Shown here: piece after piece, positions 9,438 to 53,750 of the stretch
Numbering within the stretch: position 1 is the stretch's first letter
Layout of the letters: every line of letters begins with the position of its first letter
Translations under genes and position numbers: made by a program
Notes under the pieces: generated by a model
Seen by the model: only the letters and a program-made list of their open reading frames with translations
What the model was told of the DNA's origin: nothing
The model's database searches: none
Origin: Desulfobacterales bacterium
Lineage (GTDB): Bacteria > Desulfobacterota > Desulfobacteria > Desulfobacterales > JAFDHS01
Direction of reading: 5' to 3'
Assembly (NCBI GenBank): GCA_030589165.1
Contig: JAUUWG010000002.1
Span: 1 to 59,763, forward strand
Length of the DNA: 59,763 nucleotides

Positions 9438-12224
9438 TCATTGCCCGGATAAAGGCTTCGGCAGATTCATCGCTTCATGGATTTTCATCAGTTTCTTTTT
9501 GAGTTCATCCCGCGTCAATTTACCCAGCTCATTCTCTTTCCATACATATTCATCATGAATAATAAGACCATTCTCAGCATAAAATGAAGCAATGGCCCGC
9601 AACATGCCAAAGCGGTCATACCGGTCCTTCAAGTATTTGTTTTTCATACTGATCTGTTTTCGGTAGACAAAATGATTGTGCAAAACCTGAGCGGCGGGGG
9701 CGTTGATCAGGCGATAGCCTTTCTTGCGTAAACCGAAAGAGACGCCGGCATCTTCAAAGGCATTCTGATAACCGGCATGCAGATAGGAAGATGGATCGAC
9801 CTTAAATAAGGTCGCGCCGATCGGAAGCCAGTCACAATCCCGAAAGAGCGCCGTCCGCGCATCAAAACGCGATTTCCCCTCATCGAAACGCACCAGTTCG
9901 ATCAATTCATCGTCAATAGGGTTAATTCCCCCGCCTGAAAACTGGAGGGTATTATCAGGGAAAAAAACGCGTGTTCCCACGGCGGCGATAGCCGGATCGG
10001 ATTCAGCCCGCACCAGCAGTTCTTCAATCCAGCCGGCCTGAGCAATTTCATCATTATCAAAAACAAGATAATAAGGTCCTTTGGCGTATTTCAGGGCTTG
10101 CCGGCGCCCCTCGGCCGGTCCGAGATTCGTTGAGTTAAACACCATTTTAACAAATGGAAATCTTACCGCTGCTTTCGATTTCAGATAATTGACGGTTGCC
10201 GCCTCCGAACCGTTGTCAAACAGGATGATATCAAAGGGAACGCTGACAGTGTCCACGATACTCTGGATGGCCTCAACGGTCTGTTCATGTTTTCCATAGG
10301 ACAACATGATAAAACTGATATTTTTATCAAACTTTCCTTCGCTGATATTTTTTCGCAAACAGGCTTCATTCTGGATGGTCAAGGTCGATCGGAGTTGCCG
10401 CTCCTCACTGTTCGAGGTTTCCTGATGCCCATGAATTCGATGAAAATAGGCAAATGGCGGCGCAAAGACAAAACTGTCAGAAGGATAATAAAAGGCAATA
10501 CGCATCAGCATATCATAATCCTGCGCCGAATCAAATCGGGGATCGAACATTCCAACTCTGGCAAAAACGTCTTTACGAATCAATTTGAAATGGGTGGCAT
10601 ACATTCTTTCCAGATTCTCGGTAAAATAATCCTTGCGAGGCAAATGCTCGAACGAAATCCGCTGTATCTTATCGCCTTTTTCATCGACATTGGTGCGGGC
10701 GGTGTGCAAATATACGGTTGACGCTTTCCAATACTTCAAAACGCTGGATATTGCATCGGCGGCCAAATAGTCATCACAATCCAGAAAGGCAATGATATCC
10801 CCCGAGGAATATTGAATCGCAAGATTTTGGGTCTCCGATATCCCCCTGTTTTTCTCATTGAAATACAATCGTAGCCGTTTGTCTGCCGCATATTTTTTCA
10901 AAAGCGGTCTGACATTCGAGTCTGTCGAGGCATCGTCAACAACAATAATTTCAAGCTCGGGATAGTCCTGAGCCGTCGCACTGCGAAGACATTGATCCAG
11001 ATATGCGACATGATTAAATACGGGAATAATCAGAGAAACCCTGGGACGGGCAAGATCCATCTGCGGAGAAGGAACGATTGCAGCAGGCATCTTTATCCAG
11101 GATTTTATTGTTTGCTTCAAGGGTGCCGGAAAAAACCGCAGCCACCCGCCGACCAAAGGCGAATGATACAGTTCGACCAACGTCCTTTTGATAACCGTTT
11201 CCGCCCTGTTGGTTTTCACATAATCGATAACTTTTGTCAGATGACAGACGCAACTTTTAAGCCGGCGCAGAGGAGACGTAATCTTCCATGATCTGGAATT
11301 TCGAAGCAGCGCAAGTTCCTCATTGCTTGCCTTGAGTGCTTCATTGAGCCGATCGATCTCCGTATTCTGACGCTCGATCTCCGTGTTCTGACGCTCGATC
11401 TTATCACGTAAAAACTGCAATTCATCTTCATGTTTAGGGATCAGATAACCGGAATAAAAGTCTTCCCAATCCTTACCGCTGATTCGCCCCTTGTGTTTGT
11501 CAAAGACCGCCCTGAACCATTTGGAGTGAATCGTTTTGCGATCCAATTCAATCTGATCGACCGCCTCGCGTGATTCATCTTTGGGAAAAATCCGGTACTC
11601 AGCCGTAACATCCGCCAAATGAAAAAAACGATACGATTGGGAAAGCCGGATGATCAGATCCCAGTCTTCATTGATTTCCAGATTTTCATCAAACCGGTTT
11701 TCCAAAAGAACGCGTTTTGAAAATAACAGCGCATTTAAGGGAATGTAATTTTCAAATAATAACCGCGCCCGGTTAAAATCGAAATTGTATAAATGGAAAT
11801 CTTTTATTTTAATAAAATCGGCATACGCACTCCCCGTCCATTGATAATACACGGATTGAACCGCGGAATAAGAAATTTCGACCCCGTTCTTTAAACAGGC
11901 ATCGACTAACTTTTCGACATGATCGGGATAATAGATATCATCATCATCCAGAAATGATGCAAATTCACCCTTCGCCGCTTCGATTCCAGCGTTAGCAGCC
12001 CCTGAGCGGCCATGTGTTTTTTCGAGGGCGACATACGTGAAAAAAACATCACGCATATTTTTTTGAAGATCTTCGATCAACAAAGGGGCGCCGCCGTCAT
12101 TGACGACGACAACTTCCAAAGGTCGGTAAGTTTGGGCGTTGATACTTTTCAATGCCTTTTTCAGCAGAAAAGGCCTGTTCTGTGTTCTGATGATGATGGA
12201 TACCAGTGAATTTTGTGACTTCAT
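9438..12224 (-). CDS. Triple-GT2 glycosyltransferase (three GT-A domains) with a central coiled coil
   Basis: Three separate GT2 N-terminal signatures: VSIIIRTQNRP...VVVVNDGG; VSLIIPVFNHVAYL...IIVVDDASTD; ISFIMLSYGKHE...IILFDNGS. Coiled coil ERQNTEIERQNTEIDRLNEALKASNEELALLRNSRSWKITSPLRRL. Confidence 0.85.
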   Translation of the reverse strand: MKSQNSLVSIIIRTQNRPFLLKKALKSINAQTYRPLEVVVVNDGGAPLLIEDLQKNMRDVFFTYVALEKTHGRSGAANAGIEAAKGEFASFLDDDDIYYPDHVEKLVDACLKNGVEISYSAVQSVYYQWTGSAYADFIKIKDFHLYNFDFNRARLLFENYIPLNALLFSKRVLLENRFDENLEINEDWDLIIRLSQSYRFFHLADVTAEYRIFPKDESREAVDQIELDRKTIHSKWFRAVFDKHKGRISGKDWEDFYSGYLIPKHEDELQFLRDKIERQNTEIERQNTEIDRLNEALKASNEELALLRNSRSWKITSPLRRLKSCVCHLTKVIDYVKTNRAETVIKRTLVELYHSPLVGGWLRFFPAPLKQTIKSWIKMPAAIVPSPQMDLARPRVSLIIPVFNHVAYLDQCLRSATAQDYPELEIIVVDDASTDSNVRPLLKKYAADKRLRLYFNEKNRGISETQNLAIQYSSGDIIAFLDCDDYLAADAISSVLKYWKASTVYLHTARTNVDEKGDKIQRISFEHLPRKDYFTENLERMYATHFKLIRKDVFARVGMFDPRFDSAQDYDMLMRIAFYYPSDSFVFAPPFAYFHRIHGHQETSNSEERQLRSTLTIQNEACLRKNISEGKFDKNISFIMLSYGKHEQTVEAIQSIVDTVSVPFDIILFDNGSEAATVNYLKSKAAVRFPFVKMVFNSTNLGPAEGRRQALKYAKGPYYLVFDNDEIAQAGWIEELLVRAESDPAIAAVGTRVFFPDNTLQFSGGGINPIDDELIELVRFDEGKSRFDARTALFRDCDWLPIGATLFKVDPSSYLHAGYQNAFEDAGVSFGLRKKGYRLINAPAAQVLHNHFVYRKQISMKNKYLKDRYDRFGMLRAIASFYAENGLIIHDEYVWKENELGKLTRDELKKKLMKIHEAMNLPKPLSGQ
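11354..11401. repeat. Tandem 21-nt repeat (2.3 copies) inside the triple-GT2 gene
   Basis: CGATCTCCGTATTCTGACGCT / CGATCTCCGTGTTCTGACGCT / CGATCT. It encodes the duplicated heptad ERQNTEI. Confidence 0.85.
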
Positions 12225-13109
12225 TTAACAGCCTAACCGTTCTTTAATTTTGTAATAGATCTTATAAACCCTGTGAGATCGAACCTGTTCCAAGGAGCGC
12301 AAGCATTTCCGCTTCAATCTCTCCACTTGCGCCGGTTTTGCTTTTCGTTGCGGTTTTACCCCTTGCTTATTCCCTGCCGAGCAATGCCGGATAGCGGACA
12401 AGATGAGAGGCACGATTTCTTTGTTGCGGATTTCAGCCGCCGACCATACCGAGAATCCTTCCGCATGGGACGCTGCTGCCGGCAACGTCAAACTCCTGAA
12501 ACGGTTCAACGCGAGACCAATCTCTTTATACGATCGCTCAAGCAGCTGAGTTTCATAGGCCTCCATTGCCCGCACTTTACGATCCAAAACCGGAGTGATA
12601 TCGATCAGGCAGTTGACAATCACCGGCTGGCCGATTTCCATAAAGGCCACTTGAAAGCAGTAATCCGTGCTTTGAATAAACGTCTGCATTATCTGCGTCG
12701 CCGCGCAATGGTCCGGGTGCATTTCAAATGGGGACGGAACATACACCAATTCGGGACGGTACGCCTGAAAAAGATCCCCCAGCCGTTGGAGCACATCTTG
12801 CGAAACGCCGAGATGACGATCGGCATACGGCCAGAACTCGATGTCATTCACATCCAGACAGGCACAAGCCTTGCGAGCCTCCGTCCGTCTCAGTTTGATG
12901 TAGGTCTCTTTGTCAAACCGGCCCGAAAAATCGCCCTGGGCTCCATCGGTCAAAAAAACGACTTTCACCGGGTCATCGGCCGCCCGATGAAGCGCAACAC
13001 TGCCCCCACATCCGATGGTCTCATCATCCGGATGAGGAGCCAGCACGAGGATCCGCTTCCCGGTCATGTCGGTTGCATGGTATGGAATCCGTTGTTGCTC
13101 AAACTGCAT
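12225..13109 (-). CDS. PIG-L / LmbE family N-acetylglucosaminyl deacetylase
   Basis: ILVLAPHPDDETIGCGGS and HPDH metal-binding motifs. Confidence 0.85.
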   Translation of the reverse strand: MQFEQQRIPYHATDMTGKRILVLAPHPDDETIGCGGSVALHRAADDPVKVVFLTDGAQGDFSGRFDKETYIKLRRTEARKACACLDVNDIEFWPYADRHLGVSQDVLQRLGDLFQAYRPELVYVPSPFEMHPDHCAATQIMQTFIQSTDYCFQVAFMEIGQPVIVNCLIDITPVLDRKVRAMEAYETQLLERSYKEIGLALNRFRSLTLPAAASHAEGFSVWSAAEIRNKEIVPLILSAIRHCSAGNKQGVKPQRKAKPAQVERLKRKCLRSLEQVRSHRVYKIYYKIKERLGC

Positions 13110-13149: not shown

Positions 13150-14334
13150 TTAATAAAGATCCGCATCGGCCATGGTGTAATAAATCCTCTCGGAAAGCTT
13201 TTGCCACGGCCAATTCGGATCCATGGATCGTATGGTGGGGATGATGCCCAGCGGTTCCGGCGCCGGTTTCAACCCGGAAGTGATCAGCGCCCGGGTAATA
13301 AAATGACCTTCGGGCAGCCAGGTACTGATAGTTTCGATATCCCGCTTTTGGTACTCTTTCGCCAGGCGGAAGAGAAAATCGCTGATGATGGCGGGGGAAT
13401 CCGGCGCCAGGATATCAATCAGGCAGGCGGCTTGCTCCCTGATGGTAAACACCGCATAGGCTTTTAATTCGTTGTGAAAATAGGGCCGATAGCCCCAGAT
13501 TTCATACGTATATTGCGGATGTTCGCAAAAGCGCCACTTCAGAAAAGCGGCATCCCGAATCACGAAAAGGGGATACGATGATTGGCAGCGCTCAGCCAGA
13601 CGGTCGAATTGATAGGTGACCCTCTGAATTCGTTCAATCCGGCCGCCAAACCGTTTTCTGCCGCCGATATCCTCTGGAAGGGCACTCAAAAAAGACACGT
13701 TTTTAGCCAAATGGTACTGGAGAATCCGCTGCCCGAGTTTGAAATGAAATCTTCCCGGAAAACCGTAAAAAAAGACCGAACCCTCGGGAGGAGCGAAATA
13801 TTCATAGAATTCCCGCCCGGTCCTGGCAAACACCCGGTCGGCGCGATAGGCCGGATGCGACATGCTATCGGTCAGTTGCGTCATCCGAATGGTTTTTCCT
13901 TCCAGATGGGCGCGATACGGTATACCCGAATACATGGTCACAATTTGCCCGGCTTCGCTGACACACAGCAAAATCTGGCAGCCGTAGGGATTGTTCAGAT
14001 ATTTCCAGCGCCAAACTTCCGGGGCCATTTTTTTACCGAAGGCCACCTCCCAGAGCGCCAAAACCCCCTCTTCATCCCCGGAACGGTAGGGGCGGATGAC
14101 AAATTTTCCTTTTCGAGTTTCAAAATGCCTTTCCACTTTTTCAAACTCCGCAGCAATTATTTTATGACAGTCCAAGTGAATTGCAGGGCATCCCGGCCGG
14201 AACCATGCGGAGGTCCCAGCCGCCCGAAATAATTTCCCGCTGCCATCAGATTCCAATAGGTTTCGGAAAATTTCATCCGGGGTCCGCGGCCGAAACACCC
14301 CATGGCCGGAATAAAATCGGGATTCGGGCTCCAC
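13150..14334 (-). CDS. GNAT family N-acetyltransferase; the true start is probably downstream of 14334
   Basis: IRPYRSGDEEGVLALWEVAFGKKM...WRWKY is a GNAT N-terminal pattern. The maximal ORF overlaps the upstream GT2 by 178 nt. An in-frame TTG at 14175 would reduce the overlap to 19 nt. Confidence 0.7.
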   Translation of the reverse strand: MEPESRFYSGHGVFRPRTPDEIFRNLLESDGSGKLFRAAGTSAWFRPGCPAIHLDCHKIIAAEFEKVERHFETRKGKFVIRPYRSGDEEGVLALWEVAFGKKMAPEVWRWKYLNNPYGCQILLCVSEAGQIVTMYSGIPYRAHLEGKTIRMTQLTDSMSHPAYRADRVFARTGREFYEYFAPPEGSVFFYGFPGRFHFKLGQRILQYHLAKNVSFLSALPEDIGGRKRFGGRIERIQRVTYQFDRLAERCQSSYPLFVIRDAAFLKWRFCEHPQYTYEIWGYRPYFHNELKAYAVFTIREQAACLIDILAPDSPAIISDFLFRLAKEYQKRDIETISTWLPEGHFITRALITSGLKPAPEPLGIIPTIRSMDPNWPWQKLSERIYYTMADADLY

Positions 14335-15284
14335 TCGAACAGCCAGCTTTGCCGCAGAGAGGACGGCACTTCGAGTTCAAAAGGCGCTTTAAAACCGGTG
14401 CTGCCGGAACGATCAGCCGCTGAATCCTGCGGTCGCATTAACTTGCGCAGCAATATTGCTCCTCGGTAAAGCCGGTTTGCGGAGTATTTTTCCATAAAGA
14501 CGCCATGGGACTGGGTCATCAGCGATCGTTTTTGTTCAATGTGGCGTTGATCGCACTGATCATAATGATGCACGGCTTCCGCCGCCGGATCGATCACCAG
14601 CGAATAGCCTGCTTTTTTCAAACGCAGGAACAGATCCAGATCCTCAAAATACAAAAAAAAACGCGGATCGAACAAGCCGCCTGCTGCTTGAACGGCCGAG
14701 CGCTTTAAAAGGGCCAGGCCGCCGGAAAGGTTGGAGGCCTTGAGCGGCCGCTTGGATCGCCACACGCGGATGGCATGACGCCGCCACAAACCGCTGATCA
14801 GCCTTCGGATAGTGCCGTGCGCCAATGCCGCGGCCAAAAACGGTTGCGCAAAGACAAGTTCCGGCGGAAGGGACGGCGGCAATAAAAACCGCCGTTCATC
14901 GTCCCAAAAAACCCGGGCGGAAACCGCGCCGGTGGATTGGGCCTGAAAAAGGGTCTCCTGCAAGCGCTCCAGGCAGCCGGGCAAAAGCCGCGCATCGGGA
15001 TTGAGAAGCAGGATGCAATCATCGGAAAAGTCCTCAAAAACCCGGTTGCAGGCTCTGCCGAATCCCATATTCTCCGGATTGATGATTAATTGCACGCCAT
15101 CCGGCAGAGAGCGCGCCAAAACAGCCGCCTCATCAGCATCTTCACTGTTATCCACCACCACCACCTGCACCGGTCCATGGGATGCGGAAGCGCAAACGGA
15201 TGCTGCCGCTTTCAGCGTCAGGCCGGCGGCTTTGTAATTCACAATAATCGCCAGAGTTGAACGGCATTCATCAGGGAGAGTCAT
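14157..15284 (-). CDS. Glycosyltransferase family 2
   Basis: LAIIVNYKAAGLTLKAAASV...VVVVDNSEDADE and FFLYFEDLDLFLRLKKAGY motifs. Confidence 0.85.
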   Translation of the reverse strand: MTLPDECRSTLAIIVNYKAAGLTLKAAASVCASASHGPVQVVVVDNSEDADEAAVLARSLPDGVQLIINPENMGFGRACNRVFEDFSDDCILLLNPDARLLPGCLERLQETLFQAQSTGAVSARVFWDDERRFLLPPSLPPELVFAQPFLAAALAHGTIRRLISGLWRRHAIRVWRSKRPLKASNLSGGLALLKRSAVQAAGGLFDPRFFLYFEDLDLFLRLKKAGYSLVIDPAAEAVHHYDQCDQRHIEQKRSLMTQSHGVFMEKYSANRLYRGAILLRKLMRPQDSAADRSGSTGFKAPFELEVPSSLRQSWLFEWSPNPDFIPAMGCFGRGPRMKFSETYWNLMAAGNYFGRLGPPHGSGRDALQFTWTVIK

Positions 15285-16693
15285 CAGATAATATTACGCA
15301 GTAATTTCATGCCGTAACGGCAATAATTGACAGCCGCCCGGCGGTCTTTTGCCATTTCCCTGAGCCGGTCAAACAGATAAGCAGGTCGTAAATAGACGGT
15401 TCGCAGCGCCAGTTTGCGCAGCTGCATCAACTCTTCGGCCGTGAGGTGCGGCGTTCCCGCCCCTGCTCTGGCATGGTGATGGTTCTGCATATCGGGCACG
15501 GCAATTCCGTTGCGACGCATCTCTTTATAAATTTCCGTCCCGGGATACGGCACAAAAATGCTGAACTCATAAAAATCACACCGAAGCTGTTTGGCAAATT
15601 CGATGGTTTGCATAACCTCCGTTTTGCGCTCCCACGGAAATCCCAGCATGAAAAATCCGTAACTTTTGATTCCCGCCTGCCGCAGAAGCGACATGGCCGT
15701 TTCTGCCTGGCTGCAGGTCGTTCCCTTCCTGATGCGTTTGAGTCCCTCGTCATAACCAAGCTCAACGCCCAGGGCCACCAGCCAGCAGCCTGCCGCTTTC
15801 ATCCATTGCAGCCGTTCGGCGTCCAGGGTATCCACCCGACTGTTGGCCACCCAGGAGATTTGCCCGGAAATAGGACTTTTTAAAATTTGAGTACACAGCG
15901 CTTTGACCCACGCTGCGTTGGCCGTGAAGGTATCCGCCCGGAAAAAAAAGTTGCGGATGTTATGCTGCGTCACACAGCACTCCATTTCGGCCACGATACT
16001 TTCAGGACTTCGGCGTTTGATGCGGTGGCCGTCGAGTTGATAGGCCAGGCAGTAGGTGCAATGATAAGGACAGCCCTCTGCCGCCTGAATCGTGGTTTGG
16101 GGCTCTCCGGTATCAGGCCGGACGTAGCGCTCATTGGCCACCAGTGCCCGGCACGGAAACGGAAAATCGTCCAGAGCGTAGGTCAGGGGCATGGGAGGAT
16201 TGATCACGATTTGATCCGCCCGGCGGTAAACGATGCCGCGGCAGTCTTCGATGCCGGTTCGAACGAACTCCTGAAAGATCGGCTTGTATTCTCCCCGAAT
16301 AATAACGTCCAGCTCGGGATGGCGGGTCATGACCTCCTCGACACCCTCCAGAAACGGCGCCCCCTTGGCAAGGGTCAGGATGGCCGGATTGATTTCCCTG
16401 GCCACAGCAAAGGCCTGCATGTCGTCCGCAAAGGAACTCGAAATTGCGGACATCACCAGAACATCGGGTTTGCAGTCCTGCAAATCCCGGATATAGTCCT
16501 GCCAGCTTTTTCCCTCGGCCGGATAATCCCTGATCCAAACGCGGTGCCCTGCTTGCCGGGCCATCGCCGCCATATAGGCAAGATCCAGCGGCGGACGCAT
16601 GGATGTCGCAGCCAGATCGCTGACCGCCACCTGGCAGCGGTCTTCGCCGCGGATATATTGGCCGCCGGGAGGATAGAAGAAAAAATAATTCAT
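15284..16693 (-). CDS. B12-binding domain-containing radical SAM protein (class B)
   Basis: 469 aa. N-terminal cobalamin-binding-like Rossmann region, then a CxxxCxxC cluster in AEGCPYHCTYC. Confidence 0.85.
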   Translation of the reverse strand: MNYFFFYPPGGQYIRGEDRCQVAVSDLAATSMRPPLDLAYMAAMARQAGHRVWIRDYPAEGKSWQDYIRDLQDCKPDVLVMSAISSSFADDMQAFAVAREINPAILTLAKGAPFLEGVEEVMTRHPELDVIIRGEYKPIFQEFVRTGIEDCRGIVYRRADQIVINPPMPLTYALDDFPFPCRALVANERYVRPDTGEPQTTIQAAEGCPYHCTYCLAYQLDGHRIKRRSPESIVAEMECCVTQHNIRNFFFRADTFTANAAWVKALCTQILKSPISGQISWVANSRVDTLDAERLQWMKAAGCWLVALGVELGYDEGLKRIRKGTTCSQAETAMSLLRQAGIKSYGFFMLGFPWERKTEVMQTIEFAKQLRCDFYEFSIFVPYPGTEIYKEMRRNGIAVPDMQNHHHARAGAGTPHLTAEELMQLRKLALRTVYLRPAYLFDRLREMAKDRRAAVNYCRYGMKLLRNII

Positions 16694-16737: not shown

Positions 16738-17700
16738 TCACGGCTTGGGCCGAACGACGGCAATCATCGACATGCCGCTCCATCCCAGTAGCCGTCCCAA
16801 AGCGGTCAGCGGCCAGAGGCCGGATTTAATCATCCCGGCCATCCACAGGAAACCATCGGGACTGATGTCCAAAAGCCGGCCTGAAATATCCTGAATCCAG
16901 GCCAGACGGCCCCTGATCGACGCATTCGGCGCCGCCGCCAGCGACAGGACCATGGCATCAAACGGTATTTTCCAGAATTCAAGAACCTCGAAATCCAGCT
17001 CAACAAAAAGATTTCCGAACGCCTCCTCATTCCACCAGGTCAAATGGTGCGGCGGATACTCGGTGAGCTCACGATGACCGAGCAGGCGTTGCAATCCTTT
17101 GGCCAGCACGTTATCCCGGTCCGGCACGCTGAGCACCAGACATCCGCCGGGATTCAACCTTTCCGCCAATTTTTGCAGGGTTGCAGCCGGTGCCGTGAGG
17201 TGTTCCAGCACTTCAAACATCGTAATCACCGAAAATTTTTGGGGAATGTTCAGGAATTCCTCAAGCAGCTCGTGATAAAACGCGATCCCCGGCAAGGCAT
17301 CGCGGTTGCGGGCGATGACATCCCCCGCCGCGTCCAGTCCGTGCAGGTTGCGGAAGCCGCCCATCTGCAGATCCCTCAGAAAATCGGCTGTTCCGCAGCC
17401 GATATCCAGGATCGGCTGATCGGGCGCGACATGGTTTCGAATCCAGTGCCGGCAGCTGCGCGTCCGATCCGGAATCAGATAGCGCTGCAGGCGCTTGACA
17501 TGCGGACGTTGATGCCCGTCAACAAACGCCTTCAAATAGTACAAATGATCACGGTTGGCATAAAAGTTTCGCGGCACCCTGCGCGGCAGGGCGAACTCGA
17601 CGCCGCAATTTGCGCAATGGTAAATGCGGTAATCGATCTCACACGCAGGAACTTTTTGCCGCAAAATAAGGCGGCGGTTATTACAGATGATACAGTTCAT
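16738..17700 (-). CDS. Class I SAM-dependent methyltransferase with an N-terminal Zn-ribbon
   Basis: The start is placed at the internal ATG 17700 (MNCIICNN...CANCG), which avoids overlap with the upstream gene. SAM motif ILDIGCGTADF. VITMFEVLEHL. Confidence 0.8.
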   Translation of the reverse strand: MNCIICNNRRLILRQKVPACEIDYRIYHCANCGVEFALPRRVPRNFYANRDHLYYLKAFVDGHQRPHVKRLQRYLIPDRTRSCRHWIRNHVAPDQPILDIGCGTADFLRDLQMGGFRNLHGLDAAGDVIARNRDALPGIAFYHELLEEFLNIPQKFSVITMFEVLEHLTAPAATLQKLAERLNPGGCLVLSVPDRDNVLAKGLQRLLGHRELTEYPPHHLTWWNEEAFGNLFVELDFEVLEFWKIPFDAMVLSLAAAPNASIRGRLAWIQDISGRLLDISPDGFLWMAGMIKSGLWPLTALGRLLGWSGMSMIAVVRPKP

Positions 17701-17735: not shown

Positions 17736-18677
17736 TCAGACCGACGAAGGCCCTGAGCCTAAAAACAAAACGAGGAACAACAAAACCCAAAGCAAAACGG
17801 AAATCTGCAGCGGACGATCCCTCCACAGGGTTTCCGTAGGATCTCCGTCCTGATCGGATTCGTAAAGTAAGTAGATATATCGGAAGACACCGTAAAAGAC
17901 AAGGGGCACGGTTAAAAAAAGTTCCTGGCCGAAGCGAGCGATCGTGTCCATATCCTTGCAGTATAAAAGGTAGGAGATCAGGGTGGAACCGGCCGCAACG
18001 CCCAGCATCACATCCAGAAAAATATTACTGTAGGAAGCCAGCACCGGCCGATGCTTCACGGCCTCGGCTCCCAAAGCCCGTATTTCGTAACGCCGTTTGC
18101 CAAGAGCCAGAAAGAGGGAAAGGTTCACCGCTCCGATCAGAAGCCAGGTCGATATGACGGCATCAATGGCCGTCGCCCCGGCGATGATTCGCAAGGCGAA
18201 GCCGGCCGAAATCGAAAAAAAATCAAGAATCACCACATGCTTGAGATAAAAGGTGTAAAGGCAGCCGTTCAGCATGTACGTTAGAATCAGCAGACTCAAA
18301 AAAAAATCGATGCGCATCCCCAGCGTCAAGGCCCCCAGCGCTGAAACGGCGGCCAGAGCCAGCGCCGTTTTGACACTTACCTGCCTGCAGGCCAGCGGCC
18401 GGAGTTTTTTGCGGGGATGAAGCCGATCCTGCTTGCGGTCCACCACATCATTGACCATGTAAACCGCGCTGCTGGCCATACAAAAACAGACAAAGGCCAC
18501 TATTGCGGCAGCCTGGCTGGAGGGCTGCAGGAGACTGCCGGAAAAAAAAAGGGGGATAAAAACAAAAACGTTTTTGACCCATTGCTTCACCCGGAGCAGC
18601 CGCAGCAGACAGGTTAATTGTTGATATCGATGATTCGATCCCATTGGCTCGGATTCTCCGGAGGTTTTTGTCCCCAT
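17736..18677 (-). CDS. UbiA-family prenyltransferase, decaprenyl-phosphate phosphoribosyltransferase-like
   Basis: Polytopic membrane protein. NDVVDRKQDRLHPRKKLRPLA matches the NDxxDxxxD...HPxKxxRPxA signature of the Rv3806c-type family. Confidence 0.75.
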   Translation of the reverse strand: MGTKTSGESEPMGSNHRYQQLTCLLRLLRVKQWVKNVFVFIPLFFSGSLLQPSSQAAAIVAFVCFCMASSAVYMVNDVVDRKQDRLHPRKKLRPLACRQVSVKTALALAAVSALGALTLGMRIDFFLSLLILTYMLNGCLYTFYLKHVVILDFFSISAGFALRIIAGATAIDAVISTWLLIGAVNLSLFLALGKRRYEIRALGAEAVKHRPVLASYSNIFLDVMLGVAAGSTLISYLLYCKDMDTIARFGQELFLTVPLVFYGVFRYIYLLYESDQDGDPTETLWRDRPLQISVLLWVLLFLVLFLGSGPSSV

Positions 18678-20119
18678 GCAACTTCTTTTTTCCAGTTTTG
18701 AACGTCAAACTCCCCGCCGGCTCTCCAGGCCTTGAAATCAATCGCAAATTCCGGATCGAGGGTCAGATTGACGGCAGGATTGATTCCGTTTCGAAACTGG
18801 TAGGCCCCCTTGTGAGTATCGAGATCGCCGACTACAAAAATTTTGCGTTCTTCAGGGGAGGTTTGAAAAACGATTTGACGGCAGAGCTCGTAGGAGTTTG
18901 CGGCGGCCGTATGCCAAGAGGTATTGTTAATCTGCAGCAAAACGGTCCATACGACCAGAAACACCACCCAGACTGCCTGCTTGAGCCATTTTGGTTTCGG
19001 ATTCGCACCTGACGGTGACAACAGAGCAGCGAGCAACATCGCAAATCCGGCCCCCGGCAGGTAGAGATAGCGGGTATTCTGCAGATCAGGGCTCACGGTC
19101 TGCAGCAAATTGAAAACCGGGGTTGACGTCAGAACAATCCAGGCCACCCCCAGGATCAGAAGGGACCCGGTTTTGTTGCGGCGGTGCCAGCCCGCATGAT
19201 ACAGCGCCCATAAAATGGCCGCGCCGTAGAGCGCCGCCAACAAGACAAGCGTGGCACGATAATAAACGGGACCCAGAATGGCACTATTCAGTGGAAAGGC
19301 AATGGTTTTGAGCGGAACCCACGTCAGATTGGAAATCAAAAGTGCCGGCGACCAAATCGCATGAATCGAATGCCCCTGACTGTCGAGGTAGCCCTTGATG
19401 CCGCCCAGCGTCAGCAACCGGAAAACCATATAACCGGCAGCGATCAGCCAGTAGAAAACCACCGCCCGCCGATATCGGGAAGCTTTGGCATAAAAAACCG
19501 CCAAAAGTGTGGCGACCAGCGGAAAGGAAAGCGCCATCTCCTTGTTCAGGAGTGCCGCCGCAAACGCCAGCAGAGAGAGAATCAGGTGCGAGGTCTGCCC
19601 TCCCTTAAGATAGCTGACCAGCAGACAGGCCGACAGAAGATAAAAAAAGACACAGGAGGGATCGTTCAATGCCGCCAACCAGGTCACTGCATCGGGATTC
19701 AAGGGCGAGAGAGCAAAGATCAGCCCCGCCGCAAAGGCTCCGCCGGCTGTCATTGCAAGCTGCCGGCATAATACGGCCAAAAGACCGGCATTCAATCCGT
19801 GCAAAACGACATTGGTCAAATGATAGCCAAGCGGGTCCAAACCCCACAAGCGGCTGTTGACCCACCAGGGTACAAACGAAAGCGGGCGGATAAAGTGGAA
19901 CACATCGGTTTCACGGGGCAGAAAAAGACCGAGCAGATCCCGCAACGAGGCACTTTTAAGAAGTAAAAGCAGGTTCCAGTCGTCACTCAGGAAATAATCG
20001 CCCAGAATATAAAAAAAGCCGCCAAGGGCAATCAGAACATACAGCCCCAGCAGCCGGCAGCGGGCGGCGAAGGTCGGTTCAAAAAAAAACAAGCTCAGTT
20101 TGTCGCTGGAGGAGCACAT
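18614..20119 (-). CDS. GT-C fold membrane glycosyltransferase (PMT/ArnT/TMTC-like, no TPR tail)
   Basis: 501 aa with more than 10 predicted TM helices. First-loop acidic motif YFLSDDWNLL resembles FYLDDFSSI of the TPR-GT-C at 49856. Confidence 0.65.
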   Translation of the reverse strand: MCSSSDKLSLFFFEPTFAARCRLLGLYVLIALGGFFYILGDYFLSDDWNLLLLLKSASLRDLLGLFLPRETDVFHFIRPLSFVPWWVNSRLWGLDPLGYHLTNVVLHGLNAGLLAVLCRQLAMTAGGAFAAGLIFALSPLNPDAVTWLAALNDPSCVFFYLLSACLLVSYLKGGQTSHLILSLLAFAAALLNKEMALSFPLVATLLAVFYAKASRYRRAVVFYWLIAAGYMVFRLLTLGGIKGYLDSQGHSIHAIWSPALLISNLTWVPLKTIAFPLNSAILGPVYYRATLVLLAALYGAAILWALYHAGWHRRNKTGSLLILGVAWIVLTSTPVFNLLQTVSPDLQNTRYLYLPGAGFAMLLAALLSPSGANPKPKWLKQAVWVVFLVVWTVLLQINNTSWHTAAANSYELCRQIVFQTSPEERKIFVVGDLDTHKGAYQFRNGINPAVNLTLDPEFAIDFKAWRAGGEFDVQNWKKEVAWGQKPPENPSQWDRIIDINN

Positions 20120-20715
20120 AGCATCTTCTCTACCGGTCCGAATATATCAATCAGGTTAACCGCAAGCCCTTCAAGGACTTGAGACTTGATAATATCTTCT
20201 TCTGCGTATATAATAGCTTTTGTATACTGCTCATCTGATCCTAAATGATAGATTAAAACCATCTTATCTGTTGGATGCACCAGCCAATATTCTTTAACAC
20301 CGTGTCTTTCATATAAATCACGCTTGATCTTGAGATCTTTTGCGGCAGTGGATGGTGACAGTATTTCTATAATCAAATCCGGAGCGCCTTTGCACCCTCT
20401 GTCATCCAGTTTTGACAGGTCACAGACAACTAAAATATCCGGTTGAACAACAGTAAAAATCTTATCATCTTCGGCATTGTCAGTGTCAGGCAGGCGAACA
20501 TCAAATGGCGCAATATTAATCTCGCATTCCTTATCATCCAAAAAATCAGCAAAGATTCTCGCTAATTTGAGAAGCAGGTTTTGATGAGAACGCGAAGGCG
20601 CCGGGCTCATATTATAAGCGATTCCATCAATCAGCTCCCATCTTTCATCATCCTTCCAGCCATAGTAATCTTTATATGTAAATTTTTTTTCTATCTTCTG
20701 TGCCAAAGGTGACAT
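20095..20715 (-). CDS. Uma2 (DUF820) family endonuclease
   Basis: FTYKDYYGWKDDERWELIDGIAYNMSPAPSRSHQ and the PDILVV...APDLIIEILSPST motifs. Confidence 0.85.
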   Translation of the reverse strand: MSPLAQKIEKKFTYKDYYGWKDDERWELIDGIAYNMSPAPSRSHQNLLLKLARIFADFLDDKECEINIAPFDVRLPDTDNAEDDKIFTVVQPDILVVCDLSKLDDRGCKGAPDLIIEILSPSTAAKDLKIKRDLYERHGVKEYWLVHPTDKMVLIYHLGSDEQYTKAIIYAEEDIIKSQVLEGLAVNLIDIFGPVEKMLCAPPATN

Positions 20716-20761: not shown

Positions 20762-21694
20762 CTAGCTTTTCAGGGCCCCGAATCTTCCCAGCAGGGCATC
20801 GCGCAGGCCTTGGACGACAAACCGGAAGCACTGCCGGGGAGCGCTGCCGTGGCGCTGCAGGGCTTTCAGATGGCGGTAAAGCTCGCCCCGGAAATACCAA
20901 AGCCCTTTCCAGCCTCCGAGCCGCAGGTAGCCCTCCGTCATGTTGCGCGCCATGTAGTAGTACCGAAAGGGAGCATGCTCGATCCAGAGTCCGTCCGCAG
21001 TGATGCGCTGAATGGTTCCGAGATGGTGATACAAGGTGGCTTTTTTCAGCCACCAGAACGCCCAGCCGGCATTCAGCAGACGAATGTGACATTCATGGTC
21101 GACAAAATCAATAAAATAATCTTCCCTGAAGCCGCCCACGGCTTGCAACGCTTTGACCCGGTACAGCGTGCCGGAGGTTATGGCCGAAGCGACGGCCACC
21201 GGCGGCCCGTCGGATTCGCCGTCCGAGACAGGCTCCAGCCGGAATCCGTTCCAGCGGTAGGGATGATGAATGACATCCGGAAATTGAATGCTGCGGGCCG
21301 TGGGACAAACCGCGCCCACCTGCCGGCCCTCCTGGACGAGTTGCTCGGCCGTAGTCAGTAAATCGTCCAGATCAGACGGGCTGCAAAGGCTGTCCTGGTC
21401 CAGCATGAAGATCCACTCCACTCCCATTCCGGCGGCGTGTTCGATTCCGAGGTTATACGCCTTGGCAACACCGTAATTCTCGGGCAACGGCATCACGGCG
21501 ACATCCGGCAGTGAAAGATCTACGATAACGTCAAGCGTCGAATCGGTCGAGGCATTATCGATAATTAGAATCGGCCGCCGGCAAGACGCTTCATCGGAGT
21601 ACAACGATTGGAGCAAAGATCCGATGGTTGCGGCACCATTGCAGGTCACGATCAAAATCAGGAGACGGTTTGGAGACGAGAGGTTTAGCGGCAC
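20762..21694 (-). CDS. Glycosyltransferase family 2
   Basis: LILIVTCNGAATIGSLLQSL...ILIIDNASTDST and the FMLDQDS motif. Confidence 0.85.
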   Translation of the reverse strand: MPLNLSSPNRLLILIVTCNGAATIGSLLQSLYSDEASCRRPILIIDNASTDSTLDVIVDLSLPDVAVMPLPENYGVAKAYNLGIEHAAGMGVEWIFMLDQDSLCSPSDLDDLLTTAEQLVQEGRQVGAVCPTARSIQFPDVIHHPYRWNGFRLEPVSDGESDGPPVAVASAITSGTLYRVKALQAVGGFREDYFIDFVDHECHIRLLNAGWAFWWLKKATLYHHLGTIQRITADGLWIEHAPFRYYYMARNMTEGYLRLGGWKGLWYFRGELYRHLKALQRHGSAPRQCFRFVVQGLRDALLGRFGALKS

Positions 21695-22926
21695 GCCCTA
21701 CCCCCGCAATCTTTCGGTTCGGTTGCGGCAGGTGCCGACTTTGCATCCAGAACCCATTCATGTGCCATCCACAGCATGCCGAATTCGGGATGGTCGCTCT
21801 CTACCAGAAACGGTTCGCATTTAAGCTCATGGATCGCCCTTACGACGTGTTCATCCGCAATCACGACTTTAGCCAGATAATTGCCGCTGAAAAAGGGAAT
21901 CGAAGGCACCACCAGCCGCATGGTCTGTCGGCCCGCAAATTCAAGGGGGGCAAACCCCGCGCTTTGGGTGGTCGTCGTGAAGATCGGCTGACCGTCCGGC
22001 CGTTCAATGATCAGGCCGAGATGCCCTTTGATGGGGGGGCCGATACAGCACGTTTTAATCTGAAAAATGAGGGTTTGGAACTGACGAGCCGTATCGATCG
22101 GATTTTCGCTCTCATCCAGCAGCAATAGTTCTTCAGCCATGATCTGCGGCATGGGCGCACCCGGCCCAGAAGCCGCCGCTTTGTCCTCTTTTGTTTTTGA
22201 GACTCCCTCTTCGAGATATGCAAGGTATTCGGAAATGACGGTTGAGGTTTTTCCATGGCTGCGCATGCCGCCGTCCGCCAGCCAGATGGATTCGGCGCAG
22301 AGCGTATTGATCATAAACATACTGTGACTGCAGACAATGATCGTTTTGCCGGCCTCCTTGAATCCCATCATGCGGTCGACGCATTTCTGCTGGAACTTCT
22401 GATCGCCGACGCCCAGAGCTTCGTCAATAATCAGGATATCGGGATCGACACTGGTAGCAATCGAAAAGGCCAGCCGCATATACATGCCGGAGGAATAGGT
22501 TTTCACCGGGCGGTCGATCACCTCTGCCAGTTCGGCAAACTCGATAATAGCGCCTTCCTGCTCCCGGATCTCGCTCTCGGTCAGTCCCAGCAGGGCCGCA
22601 TTGAGATGAATATTGCCCCTGCCGCTGAATTCGGGATGAAATCCGGAGCCCAGCTCCAGCAGCGCCGCCACCCGCCCCTTTTTTTTCAGGTGCCCGGAAC
22701 TGGGGGTCACCGTTCCGGCCAGAATTTTCAACAGGGTCGATTTGCCGGCCCCGTTTTCGCCGATAATTCCGAGGGTCTGCCCGTGAGGGATCTGAAACGA
22801 CACATTCTCCAAGGCTCTCACCAGCTGATGACAGGGCCGGCGGGTAAGGGCTTCCTTGAGGCGATCCAGCGGTCGCAGATAGACCCGGTAGTGTTTTGTC
22901 AGATTTTGTGCTTTTATTGCATACAT
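21685..22926 (-). CDS. wzt: Polysaccharide ABC exporter ATP-binding protein with a C-terminal Wzt_C-like extension
   Basis: Walker A GENGAGKSTLLKIL, signature YSSGMYMRLAF, Walker B ILIIDEAL. An extra tail of about 160 aa (LLLLDESENPI...FLVESDHPEFGMLWM) resembles the Wzt carbohydrate-binding domain. Confidence 0.85.
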   Translation of the reverse strand: MYAIKAQNLTKHYRVYLRPLDRLKEALTRRPCHQLVRALENVSFQIPHGQTLGIIGENGAGKSTLLKILAGTVTPSSGHLKKKGRVAALLELGSGFHPEFSGRGNIHLNAALLGLTESEIREQEGAIIEFAELAEVIDRPVKTYSSGMYMRLAFSIATSVDPDILIIDEALGVGDQKFQQKCVDRMMGFKEAGKTIIVCSHSMFMINTLCAESIWLADGGMRSHGKTSTVISEYLAYLEEGVSKTKEDKAAASGPGAPMPQIMAEELLLLDESENPIDTARQFQTLIFQIKTCCIGPPIKGHLGLIIERPDGQPIFTTTTQSAGFAPLEFAGRQTMRLVVPSIPFFSGNYLAKVVIADEHVVRAIHELKCEPFLVESDHPEFGMLWMAHEWVLDAKSAPAATEPKDCGGRACR

Positions 22927-22974: not shown

Positions 22975-23327
22975 ACGCCTTGCTTTGATAAGTGCACCGA
23001 TCATTTTGCCAAGCTGACTGCATTCTTTATCGAGATTTTCAAAAAGATCCTTTTCAATATAACCAATTTCAAATGCTATCTGGAGCTGGGTACGTAATTC
23101 GGCCAACGAATCTTTAGAAATATAAAAAACCTGACTGCATCTTTATTGGTATCACGTTCATCCCCTTCAGCCAAATTACTAGAGATACTTACAGCACACC
23201 TTCGTATTTGATCTCTAAGCCCAAAATCTTTACCCAAAAGCCCTTTATTAGACATCTTATAAATTCTCACCGCCAAATCTTTGGCCCTTTGCCAAACCAA
23301 CAATCCCTTAAATCCCTTCTTTTCCAT
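22951..23327 (-). pseudogene. Four-helix-bundle protein gene (23S rRNA intervening-sequence protein / Avd-like family), interrupted by a -1 frameshift in a homopolymer
   Basis: N-part MEKKGFKGLLVWQRAKDLAVRIYKMS...QIRRCAVSISSNLAEGDERDTNKDAVRFF. C-part in another frame: YISKDSLAELRTQLQIAFEIGYIEKDLFENLDKECSQLGKMIGALIKARRKPLTPNP-stop. Adding one T to the T6 run (plus-strand A6 at 23124..23129) restores a 125-aa ORF. Confidence 0.8.
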
Positions 23328-23381: not shown

Positions 23382-24266
23382 CTATAACACATCCGCAAAT
23401 GCATGGCGGGCACGTCCGAAAAAGGCGACCCCGCTTAGAAAGAAAAAGACTGCCAGCGCCGTTGCATACGCCACCAATCCCCAGGAAATCGTGTGCTGCA
23501 GCAATATCTGATGATAGAGTTCAATAAAGGGATACATGGGATTCAGCTTAAATATCCCCATAAATTTTTCCGGCACCATGCTGACCGGATACAGAATGGG
23601 CGTCAAATACATCCACAATTGCAGCACCACACCGATAAACTGCCGGATATCCCTCACAAAAACACTCAACCCCGCAATCAGAATCACCAGCCCCAGCGTA
23701 AACAACACCTGCGTCATGACCACCAGCGGCAGATAAAGCCACATCCAGTGAAAATAGCCCTTGATCACGAGATAGCCGATCAGCAGCATAAAACCCAGCC
23801 CGTTCAGAATAAAGGTCACCACGACCTCGGCCACGGGCAGAATTTCAAAGGGAAACGCCACCTTGGTAATCAAATTGGCCTTGTTCAGAATAATGCCGGG
23901 GGAACTGCCCAGCGCCTCCGAAAAGGCGATCCACGGCAAGAGTCCTACCAGCAGGTAAACCACGAAACTGTCCGTTCCGGTTTCAATCGGCTTCAAACGA
24001 ATCTGGAAGATCACGGAAAAGACAAAAATATAAATCGGTAAATTGGCCAGCGGCGTCAGCACACTCCAGGCCAATCCCCCGATGGAGCCGGCGTAGCGCC
24101 CCCGGATTTCCTGACTGACAAATCCTTTAAAAAGGGTCTTGAAACGAAAAGGCGCCACCAGCCAGTGCCAGGCCATGAGCGGTAAACCTCGCATGCTGCG
24201 CACAAGCGCATAGATCCATTTTTTGAAAACCATTATTTGCTCCGCCATACCGTCGTCAATGGCCAA
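23382..24266 (-). CDS. wzm: ABC-2 type polysaccharide exporter permease
   Basis: 294 aa with 6 TM segments. N-terminal FVSQEIRGRYAGSIGGLAWSVLTPL matches the ABC-2 Wzm/TagG pattern. Confidence 0.85.
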   Translation of the reverse strand: MAIDDGMAEQIMVFKKWIYALVRSMRGLPLMAWHWLVAPFRFKTLFKGFVSQEIRGRYAGSIGGLAWSVLTPLANLPIYIFVFSVIFQIRLKPIETGTDSFVVYLLVGLLPWIAFSEALGSSPGIILNKANLITKVAFPFEILPVAEVVVTFILNGLGFMLLIGYLVIKGYFHWMWLYLPLVVMTQVLFTLGLVILIAGLSVFVRDIRQFIGVVLQLWMYLTPILYPVSMVPEKFMGIFKLNPMYPFIELYHQILLQHTISWGLVAYATALAVFFFLSGVAFFGRARHAFADVL

Positions 24267-48741: not shown

Positions 48742-48769
48742 AACCATTGCGCAGGTTTGATTTTGACTT

Positions 48770-49597: not shown

Positions 49598-49855
49598 AAA
49601 GAACCCTTTGGTTGATGAAGTGGCCAAATTACAAAAAGAAAACGCAGGGATTCATGGTTCAGGCCGATTGCGAATCCGTTCTTGACCGCCTGCGGCTTCA
49701 GGACGGGACGATCTCCACACCGGCTTAAAGCAAAAGACACACAAACCGTATGATGTAAAATTAGTATTTGTTTCCTCATTTCCAGTACCAACATCGCATC
49801 ATCCAACGACTGACAGACAAATTGGAACACTGAAAATTCGGTCGCAATACCAGGC

Positions 49856-51790: not shown

Positions 51791-51792
51791 AT

Positions 51793-53636: not shown

Positions 53637-53750
53637 CGGCCTGAGTTTTCGAAATTCAGCAAAGGAAAGATCCTGTGCCTGGTAAGGATCGGGCAACCGT
53701 CTATCCCATTCCATAAATAAATGGTTGCGCTCCATTAGAGCGTTCCGGAG

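Follow-up and report, generated by a model that had tools for sequence, protein, structure and literature searches.

The metagenome contig JAUUWG010000002.1 of a Desulfobacterales bacterium, analysed here over its entire 59,763 bp (the window), carries a UbiA-family gene that overlaps the gene of a polytopic glycosyltransferase of the GT-C fold (GT-C), with a methyltransferase gene and a radical S-adenosylmethionine (SAM) enzyme gene following downstream. We propose that the UbiA protein and the GT-C form the core of a three-component-type system for extracytoplasmic pentofuranosylation in a Wzm/Wzt locus, and that the radical-SAM enzyme tailors the polyprenyl-phosphate donor, a reading that we consider probable from sequence comparisons. 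The coupling of UbiA and radical-SAM genes is conserved and previously undescribed. The window being the whole contig, gene absences reported below hold for the contig only.

The UbiA gene (17736..18644, minus strand) encodes a putative polyprenyl-phosphate 5-phosphoribosyltransferase of 302 amino acids (aa), resembling the decaprenyl- and polyprenyl-phosphoribose (DPPR and PPPR) synthases. The start at 18644 is the one used by public gene calls (two near-identical contigs of the Joint Genome Institute, JGI). An alternative ATG at 18677 would give 313 aa, and an exact-sequence database look-up of this 313-aa open reading frame (ORF) returned no match, the database version starting at ATG 18644. 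The Pfam UbiA family matched with E = 6.4e-22. Judged by the curated equivalog cut-offs used for all NCBIfam identities here, the protein lay above threshold for two decaprenyl-phosphate phosphoribosyltransferase models, NF008977 (264.8 bits, cut-off 234) and NF008978 (215.3 bits, cut-off 207). Rv3806c of Mycobacterium tuberculosis (PDB 8j8j) matched residues 24-299 end to end with E = 8e-31. The signature loop NDVVDRKQDRLHPRKKLRPLA (18390..18452, minus strand; residues 76-96 of the 313-aa ORF), which is the Mg2+- and phosphoribosyl pyrophosphate (PRPP)-binding loop of DPPR synthases, aligned with NDVRDVEADREHPTKRFRPIA of Rv3806c, the loop pattern NDxxDxxxD...HPxKxxRP being kept. The residues N65, D66, D69, D73, H76, P77, K79, R82 and P83 of this catalytic loop are invariant in 27 relatives, as are K183, R184, R185 and E187 of a second loop, KRRxE. 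The N/D residues equivalent to those of the signature loop are essential in ORF15 of Citrobacter youngae (PMC11127046). Searches of the 302-313-aa protein against Pfam and NCBIfam found no extra domain, a fused phosphatase included. In the UbiA tree it fell into an environmental NF008977 group, on a long branch apart from Rv3806c. From these features we infer an enzyme of the DPPR/PPPR synthase type, predicted to transfer ribose-5-phosphate from PRPP to polyprenyl phosphate.

Many UbiA relatives carry the automatic JGI name '4-hydroxybenzoate polyprenyltransferase', which would fit an aromatic or heme prenyltransferase unrelated to glycans and adjacent to the GT-C gene by coincidence. We regard this as next to impossible: the models for heme-o synthase and 4-hydroxybenzoate prenyltransferase gave 35-43 bits and, with the menaquinone prenyltransferase models included, the range was 16-43 bits, whereas the DPPR synthase model gave 265 bits, the Rv3806c match is full-length, the PRPP loop is conserved, and the UbiA and GT-C genes overlap. 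A quinone or heme prenyltransferase identity was rejected on the NCBIfam scores, which together with the 8j8j alignment and the UbiA tree bear out the original prediction, made from the sequence alone, that the protein belongs with the DPPR synthases.

Directly upstream of the UbiA gene lies that of the 501-aa GT-C (18614..20119, minus strand), a polytopic, PMT_2/TMTC-like protein without a TPR tail, whose 3' end overlaps the UbiA start by 31 nt (64 nt from the alternative start). Its Pfam PMT_2 score of 17.4 bits was below cut-off. A fold search was used because comparison with PDB by sequence gave chance matches only. The AlphaFold model, based on 35 relatives, reached a predicted local distance difference test score (pLDDT) of 81.5 and a predicted template modelling score (pTM) of 0.87. 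Its top 31 Foldseek matches in PDB were all GT-C enzymes (probability 0.98-1.00; template modelling score, by query, 0.31-0.54), with STT3, AglB, PglB, ArnT, DPY19, Pmt4 and ALG9 followed by AftD and AftA. D46 and D47, just after the first transmembrane (TM) segment TM1, are invariant in the 35 relatives, across which H100, R350 and Y353 are also conserved. Lys and Arg residues before TM1 suggest, by the positive-inside rule, a cytoplasmic N-terminus, which would place the DD motif in the first extracytoplasmic loop. The protein is thus proposed, from sequence and model, to be the periplasmic-face transferase of a lipid-linked pentofuranose. The overlapping genes and the fold model confirm the earlier observation that a signature-bearing UbiA gene lies directly downstream of a polytopic GT-C gene; together with the DPPR synthase identity and the DD motif they also support its suggestion of a periplasmic-face pentofuranosylation using ribofuranose (Ribf) or a modified pentose.

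The family of the 501-aa protein was delimited with a hidden Markov model (HMM) built from the membrane domain only, TPR columns being excluded; most relatives have TPR tails. Two GT-Cs of Gallionellaceae fell into the family (E = 4.9e-46 and 4.6e-39). The Gallionellaceae loci (L028, L033 and L055) have the order GT-C, DprE1-like, DprE2-like, HAD, UbiA, LPG_synthase_TM, so that elsewhere the family serves with donors made by UbiA proteins. A reading of another locus, L012, as GT-C-UbiA-SDR (short-chain dehydrogenase/reductase) was dropped, since L012:212-1657, like L090:1-1323, is a TPR protein that had been miscalled via the TPR columns.

A published precedent exists for this kind of gene set. 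Kelly, Duong, Nothof, Lowary and Whitfield (PNAS 2024, PMC11127046) showed that the Wzm/Wzt-exported O antigens of C. youngae O1 and O2 receive periplasmic alpha-pentofuranose side chains. Three components are involved: a UbiA-type polyprenyl-phosphoribose synthase (ORF15, a Rv3806c homologue), a small flippase (ORF14) and a GT-C (ORF12, the founder of GT136) (PMC11127046). The accessory enzymes set the sugar, which is Ribf where no epimerase is present, xylofuranose (Xylf) with the SDR epimerase ORF13, and arabinofuranose (Araf) with DprE1/DprE2 homologues; such systems were reported to be widespread (PMC11127046). The window shares with the C. youngae system a UbiA synthase with NDxxDxxxD, an adjacent GT-C, a Wzm/Wzt locus and the lack of DprE1/DprE2. 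It differs in that the UbiA protein has no fused HAD phosphatase (PRP) domain, in that neither a phosphatase nor a small flippase (4-TM; 'MATE' in the paper) is encoded in the locus, and in that the GT-C is PMT_2/TMTC-like and lacks a carbohydrate-binding module (CBM) at its C-terminus, whereas ORF12, by its description only, is EpsG-like with a CBM. No EpsG match was found by Pfam in the 501-aa protein, nor a beta-rich C-terminal CBM in its model. The conserved positions D46/D47, H100 and R350-Y351 resemble D31, H106 and R349-Y350 of ORF12, which is a likeness only. Compared with C. youngae O2, the radical-SAM enzyme and the methyltransferase sit where O2 has its SDR epimerase. The locus is best filed as a variant of the published three-component systems, in which UbiA and GT-C without DprE1/2 are known and the UbiA-radical-SAM coupling is new.

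Pfam scans of all non-overlapping window ORFs of at least 70 aa revealed no FAD_binding_4/ALO protein and no DprE2-type SDR, and likewise no HAD or PAP2 phosphatase and no small transporter of the SMR, EamA, GtrA or MATE type. Six-frame tblastn with DprE1-like, DprE2-like, HAD, LPG_synthase_TM, EamA and SMR proteins from related loci as queries produced no match with E <= 1 in any of the window's reading frames. The other multi-TM ORFs are two Wzm proteins, a second GT-C, a DUF2304 protein and a 168-aa ORF (32069-32575, minus strand) inside a 2913-aa gene; the flippase gene may lie in another part of the genome. The earlier statement that the window holds no FAD-oxidase-like ORF and no DprE1/DprE2 genes was thus correct. 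Because DprE1/DprE2 are missing from the window, the reading proposed here predicts ribofuranose, or a pentose derived by the radical-SAM enzyme, instead of D-arabinofuranose from the mycobacterial pathway. Absence of DprE1/2 by itself is ordinary, since a DprE-free combination of PPPR synthase, flippase and GT-C has been described (PMC11127046). Of the non-canonical donor route that had been proposed from this absence, the DprE-free part was therefore already published, and what stands is that the radical-SAM enzyme could make a modified pentose.

To compare neighbourhoods, 62 loci with a recovered UbiA ORF were drawn from the best 80 of at least 595 relatives found in a one-genome-per-species scan, these 80 (40-47% identity) being metagenome-assembled genomes (MAGs) of many phyla. 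Extended SDR epimerases were neighbours in 7 of the 62 loci, LPG_synthase_TM in 7 and DprE1-like FAD oxidases in 6, and small EamA/SMR transporters also occurred. The commonest neighbour listed was DUF362, directly downstream of UbiA in 15 of the 62. This DUF362-UbiA pairing (L010-L089, for example L056 1044-2126) has a median gap of 26 nt, spans several phyla and mostly lacks an adjacent GT-C.

These counts bear on two further explanations. A canonical D-arabinofuranose pathway would have its DprE1, DprE2, phosphatase and flippase genes off the contig, the GT-C being an arabinofuranosyltransferase; the rest of the genome is unseen, and Gallionellaceae GT-Cs of the same family do occur with DprE1-like and DprE2-like genes. 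Where present, however, DprE1-like genes lay within about 1-3 kb of UbiA (6 loci), no radical-SAM-linked locus had one, and 59.8 kb dense in glycan genes contain nothing DprE-like, so that we hold this pathway to be improbable. Still less credible is a xylofuranose variant in which an extended SDR of the window (2943-3959) would epimerise lipid-linked ribose at C3, as ORF13 of C. youngae does. SDR epimerases adjoin DPPR-synthase-like UbiA genes in the 7 loci above, and two of these neighbouring SDRs have 26-28% identity with the window SDR, sharing with it a best NCBIfam match, HpnA-like, below cut-off. Extended SDRs in general show that degree of similarity, though, and the gene lies 14 kb from UbiA and overlaps a different gene of glycosyltransferase family 2 (GT2; 3938-4723).

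The comparison with the mycobacterial decaprenyl-phospho-arabinose pathway (Rv3806c, Rv3807c, DprE1/DprE2, Emb/Aft) follows the same lines. Shared are the full-length homologous first enzyme (8j8j, E = 8e-31) and the principle that a GT-C acting outside the cytoplasm draws on a lipid-linked pentofuranose donor. The window differs in lacking DprE1, DprE2 and the PAP2 phosphatase, and its GT-C model fits AftD, AftA and Emb less well than oligosaccharyltransferase, ArnT and PMT enzymes.

The radical-SAM enzyme (15284..16693, minus strand; 469 aa) is encoded two genes downstream of UbiA and resembles HpnJ, BchE and AprD4. Both of its Pfam matches, Radical_SAM (PF04055, 62 bits) and B12-binding (PF02310, 40.9 bits, cut-off 32.1), were above cut-off; the B12-binding domain is N-terminal, and the CxxxCxxC cluster motif is formed by C208, C212 and C215. 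The Pfam matches thus verify the downstream partners named in the original prediction, a methyltransferase and a B12-radical-SAM enzyme. Scores were below the equivalog cut-offs for HpnJ (197.4 against 577.6), BchE (168.2 against 481.35) and AprD4 (110.9 against 500). The closest solved structure is AprD4 (6fd2; E = 1e-37 over the core), and MgmA (9ccb), OxsB, TsrM, TokK and CysS are further structural relatives. AprD4 is a diol dehydratase that acts on a vicinal diol of an aminoglycoside sugar and binds no cobalamin; MgmA is a true B12-dependent C-methyltransferase. HpnJ is believed to carry out a ring contraction on a glucosamine that the GT2 HpnI has attached to a hopanoid. HpnJ (with HpnI and the deacetylase HpnK) and AprD4, respectively the best named family and the best solved structure, both act on sugars, and HpnJ provides a precedent for a family member acting on a sugar bound to a polyisoprenoid lipid by a neighbouring GT2. 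In contrast to HpnJ, the window enzyme has no hopanoid genes at its locus, and its partner is a UbiA phosphoribosyltransferase.

Radical-SAM relatives were collected by searching metagenome contigs with a three-sequence alignment, which gave 80 loci. A DPPR-synthase-like UbiA gene lay immediately upstream in 16 of the 19 best metagenomic loci (44-46% identity), at distances from overlapping to 359 nt; the other three had less than 300 nt of upstream DNA. The same arrangement was found in L116 and L119 (41% identity), and in the Planctomycetota MAG L011 the gene immediately after UbiA encodes a radical-SAM protein that shares 45% identity with that of the window. One UbiA protein from the metagenomic set of pairs scored 298.7 bits with NF008977. 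In a distance tree, which did not contain the close relative L174, the window enzyme fell within the subclade that holds all UbiA-adjacent members, and the UbiA proteins linked to radical-SAM genes occupied at least four separate places in the UbiA tree. Adjacency of this subclade to DPPR-synthase-like UbiA genes extends over at least six lineages, among them Planctomycetota, Elusimicrobiota and Thermococcus pacificus. DprE1-like and radical-SAM genes were mutually exclusive among the loci compared. GT-C genes of three different families were often near the pairs. Among the flanks of membrane glycosyltransferase type, a TMEM260-like GT-C gene follows directly in L116 and PA14+PMT_2 GT-Cs lie beside the pair in L090 and L095; in L119 a VTT/DedA-family protein precedes it. 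The original prediction had listed the radical-SAM gene merely as a neighbour; the adjacency stands, and comparative genomics shows it to be a conserved partner of UbiA.

Two loci deserve separate mention. An Elusimicrobia MAG has the order UbiA, radical-SAM, radical-SAM, DUF2079, radical-SAM, radical-SAM; where such paralogues stand in tandem, as they do in some loci, a reaction of several steps is suggested. In culture, the archaeon Thermococcus pacificus is available; its locus (L170, CP015102.1, 10001-17208) encodes a radical-SAM protein (45% identity), then a UbiA protein that is 36% identical to that of the window and carries NDLRDFEVDRFHPKKRKRPL, then DUF2079. Next come a pilin-like protein with a class-III signal, a PMT/PMT_2 GT-C of 735 aa and further pilin-like (pilin/archaellin-like) proteins. 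By analogy with pilin arabinosylation by TfpW, this arrangement suggests a pentofuranosyl modification of pilin-like proteins. The TfpW system of Pseudomonas aeruginosa/paraeruginosa, correctly described in the original prediction, combines a GT-C carrying TPRs with Rv3806c/DprE1/DprE2 homologues. The window shares with it a GT-C of the kind with an essential DDx motif and the predicted use of a UbiA-derived lipid-linked pentofuranose; a TPR tail like that of TfpW is present in most relatives of the window GT-C and in the window's second GT-C, and in T. pacificus the UbiA-radical-SAM cassette likewise sits beside pilin-like proteins. Unlike TfpW as described, the 501-aa GT-C has no TPR, and the window holds neither a pilin gene nor DprE1/2.

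Beyond the UbiA-linked subclade, sister radical-SAM clades adjoin small GT2 polyprenyl-phosphate sugar synthases of the PpgS/AglJ/ArnC type in 24 of the 80 loci, and two database proteins (P0328 and P0338) are GT2-radical-SAM fusions. Loci of these clades often hold several radical-SAM paralogues with GT-Cs nearby, six GT-C genes in L166. What the radical-SAM neighbourhoods share is an enzyme that charges polyprenyl phosphate with a sugar. They would be explained most economically if the family modified the lipid-linked sugar before it is flipped; the radical-SAM enzyme must act in the cytoplasm, because SAM and a reductant are needed. Literature searches returned nothing that links a radical-SAM enzyme to a DPPR synthase or to polyprenyl-phosphate sugars, and the word 'radical' is absent from the supplement of Kelly et al. 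(PMC11127046).

Two of the sister-clade loci have further features of their own. In L166 (6269-21149) the six GT-Cs are tandem members of the window family, most with TPR tails, around one pair of a radical-SAM and a PpgS-like GT2 gene. In L171 (7174-10214) a GT2-radical-SAM fusion follows a YdjC-family deacetylase, resembling HpnK/HpnI/HpnJ outside a hopanoid context, and three more B12-domain radical-SAM genes and one SPASM-domain radical-SAM gene lie around the fusion.

Several observations weigh against a role of the radical-SAM enzyme in donor synthesis, or against the wider proposal. Most of the adjacent pairs belong to one lineage with shared synteny to PmbA/TldD and PilT, so that the independent cases number about six, not twenty: the window, the PmbA/TldD-PilT lineage, L116, L119, the Elusimicrobia MAG and T. 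pacificus. A radical-SAM gene was present in only 2 of the 62 UbiA loci from genomes. Members of the UbiA-linked subclade without a UbiA gene nearby exist (L132, L155 and L159; also L174). In the window a methyltransferase gene separates UbiA from the radical-SAM gene, unlike the direct adjacency elsewhere. B12 dependence of the enzyme is not assured, because AprD4, its nearest solved relative, binds no cobalamin. On the side of the GT-C, the closest relatives (P0122, P0124 and P0125; 27-29% identity) have no UbiA nearby, and one lies in an Arn-like locus; use of the GT-C family is therefore not confined to donors made by UbiA, and it is the neighbouring synthase, not the GT-C family, that indicates the donor. 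Two of the steps proposed below rest on unseen genes, no phosphatase or flippase being present in the window; these are also missing near most related UbiA loci, which is weak evidence of anything.

A last point of this kind concerns the genes on the other side. The radical-SAM stop overlaps the start of a GT2 gene, which is followed by GNAT and PIG-L genes, and together these could form an amino-sugar branch like that of HpnI/HpnK/HpnJ. This arrangement favours another explanation, namely a plain alpha-ribofuranose system as in C. youngae O1 that relies on a housekeeping phosphatase and flippase, with the methyltransferase and the radical-SAM enzyme acting elsewhere in the glycan, on a methyl cap read by Wzt or on a residue derived from glucosamine (GT2, PIG-L, GNAT; HpnI/HpnK/HpnJ-like). 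Ribf needs no epimerase (PMC11127046). The Wzt protein is extended at its C-terminus by some 160 aa, which match Wzt_C weakly, and such modules pair with methyltransferase terminators in known systems; HpnJ is the best-scoring named family for the radical-SAM enzyme, and the YdjC gene with the GT2-radical-SAM fusion of L171 is again HpnK/HpnI/HpnJ-like. Set against this, the window radical-SAM enzyme clusters with relatives adjacent to UbiA rather than with the clades adjacent to GT2, loci without PIG-L, GNAT or Wzt in the vicinity also carry the UbiA-radical-SAM pair, and the 375-aa GT2 of the window has a relative in only one radical-SAM locus. We consider the plain ribofuranose system unlikely, while granting it appreciable weight.

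If the radical-SAM enzyme does tailor the donor, the pathway may be pictured as follows. The UbiA protein would move ribose-5-phosphate from PRPP to polyprenyl phosphate at the cytoplasmic face, as its family and catalytic loop indicate, and the 5-phosphate would be taken off by a phosphatase encoded outside the window. The radical-SAM enzyme, possibly together with the methyltransferase, would then alter the lipid-linked pentose in the cytoplasm, a step suggested by the conserved neighbourhood. After flipping of the donor by a protein likewise encoded outside the window, the GT-C would move the pentofuranosyl residue to an exported glycan or protein by means of the DD motif in its first periplasmic loop, as fold, motif and gene overlap suggest. 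Candidate chemistries on polyprenyl-phospho-ribofuranose are C-methylation, a radical epimerisation at C2 or C3, and diol dehydration to a deoxy pentose; the epimerisation is a candidate to stand in for DprE1/DprE2 or ORF13. Ring contraction like that of HpnJ was disfavoured, as it would presumably remove the anomeric centre needed in a GT-C donor. The carriers identified so far are mostly anaerobes (Thermococcus, a Candidatus Brocadia entry, Elusimicrobia, groundwater Planctomycetota), which is consistent with an alternative that needs neither oxygen nor flavin but is no proof of it.

More tentatively, and at slightly less than an even chance, we extend this to the pair in general. The UbiA-radical-SAM pair may be a donor-synthesis cassette, common to Bacteria and Archaea, in which the radical-SAM enzyme, by itself or aided by paralogues and a methyltransferase, converts polyprenyl-phospho-ribofuranose at the cytoplasmic face to a DprE1-free epimer or to a C-methyl or deoxy pentofuranose for transfer by GT-Cs of several families, and may represent one branch of a wider radical-SAM family that tailors GT2-made lipid-linked sugars.

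The genes from Wzm to a protein with three GT2 modules form one same-strand run with overlapping genes, and the whole is an ABC-transporter-type (Wzm/Wzt) polysaccharide locus, here on the minus strand throughout. The run begins with the Wzm-type ABC-2 permease (23382..24266; Pfam ABC2_membrane, E = 1.7e-14; six hydrophobic segments). The Wzt-type ABC ATPase (21685..22926; ABC_tran, E = 4.7e-21) carries its C-terminal extension as a possible glycan-binding module (Wzt_C, 18.5 bits against a cut-off of 30.4), and the NCBIfam TagH and galactan Wzt/RfbE models matched it below their cut-offs. A rhamnosyltransferase-like GT2 (20762..21694; Glycos_transf_2, E = 7.4e-18; TIGR01556, 120.7 bits, below cut-off) is proposed to act in cytoplasmic chain synthesis. 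Between UbiA and the radical-SAM gene lies the class-I SAM methyltransferase (16738..17700; Methyltransf_23, E = 3.1e-20) with an N-terminal CxxC...CxxC element; in PDB it comes closest to sugar N,N-dimethyltransferases and to UbiG (E about 5e-7). Weak, non-specific relatives (24-28% identity) near other radical-SAM loci gave no convincing conserved partnership. The methyltransferase may tailor the donor, methylate an amino sugar left by the PIG-L deacetylase, or cap the chain for the extended Wzt. Beyond the radical-SAM gene follow the 375-aa GT2 (14157..15284; Glycos_transf_2, E = 5.7e-15), whose start overlaps the radical-SAM stop by 1 nt (ATGA), a GNAT acetyltransferase-like protein (13150..14136; 328 aa in the JGI call; Acetyltransf_9, E = 2.6e-12), a PIG-L/LmbE-family N-acetylglucosaminyl deacetylase (12225..13109; PIG-L, E = 2.3e-29) and, as a candidate chain polymerase, the 928-aa protein with three GT2 modules (9438..12224; three Glycos_transf_2 matches, E = 9.9e-77).

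Some features of this run are unusual. A Uma2-family gene, putatively restriction endonuclease-like (20095-20715, minus strand), lies inside the operon just downstream of the rhamnosyltransferase-like GT2, and its 3' end overlaps the GT-C start by 25 nt; it is an odd passenger in a biosynthetic operon. Between Wzm and Wzt an ORF of the '23S rRNA intervening sequence protein' family, a four-helix bundle (23076-23327, minus strand), has 83 aa in the window and in L002 (1040-1291) and 51 aa in the near-identical contig L001 (1526-1681), where the GT2 beside it has 297 aa instead of 310 aa, which represents strain-level variation between two samples. An IS605-type TnpB (OrfB_IS605 and Cas12f-like TNB; 25036-26211, minus strand) flanks the operon, and near the contig start an IS200-like Y1 transposase is matched in part (1029-1946, minus strand). 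The GC content is 51-56% over 12-24 kb and 41-47% in the adjoining stretches, which suggests a mosaic locus.

A second module on the plus strand (47956-54167) comprises Wzm (47956-48741), Wzt (48770-49597), a GT-C with TPR, a GT4, a PpgS-like GT2 and DUF2304. Its GT-C (49856-51790) has 644 aa, a C-terminal TPR, a YLDDF motif and the TfpW architecture, and matched the membrane-domain HMM with E = 6.9e-49. For the GT2 (52944-53636) the best NCBIfam match was PpgS, with 83 bits against a cut-off of 370; DUF2304 follows at 53751-54167. The module looks like a separate system for polyprenyl-phosphate-hexose side chains, with the same three kinds of parts, we presume, as the PpgS (Rv3631)/Rv3632/Rv3779 galactosamine system of M. 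tuberculosis. The idea that the 501-aa GT-C uses the donor of the PpgS-like GT2 was dropped, since the second GT-C adjoins that GT2; with this GT2 and DUF2304 having their own GT-C, the 501-aa GT-C is therefore left for UbiA. Between the two loci, the 2913-aa ORF (31667-40408, plus strand) joins a GT4 and two GT2 modules to alginate-lyase and methyltransferase domains, making an unusually large multi-domain glycan synthase or modifier, and a BNR_4 protein (43030-44478) and a 757-aa alginate-lyase-domain protein (45511-47784) are encoded near it.

Surface glycans that contain pentofuranoses are strongly antigenic, and the chemistry of these sugars offers drug targets, DprE1 being one in tuberculosis. 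To our knowledge, only three fates of the lipid-linked ribose donor have been known, namely no change (Ribf), SDR epimerisation (Xylf) and conversion by DprE1/DprE2 (Araf). Should the radical-SAM enzyme prove unrelated to the donor, the locus would be another Ribf-type system of the published kind. If it does act on the donor, radical-SAM tailoring of a polyprenyl-phosphate sugar would be a fourth route and a new substrate class for B12-domain radical-SAM enzymes, and through the T. pacificus locus the idea can be tested in an organism in culture. Many unannotated radical-SAM genes that neighbour UbiA or GT2 lipid-sugar synthases would thereby gain a function, and so far unknown sugars would be expected in glycans of groups such as Planctomycetota, Elusimicrobiota and Thermococcales.

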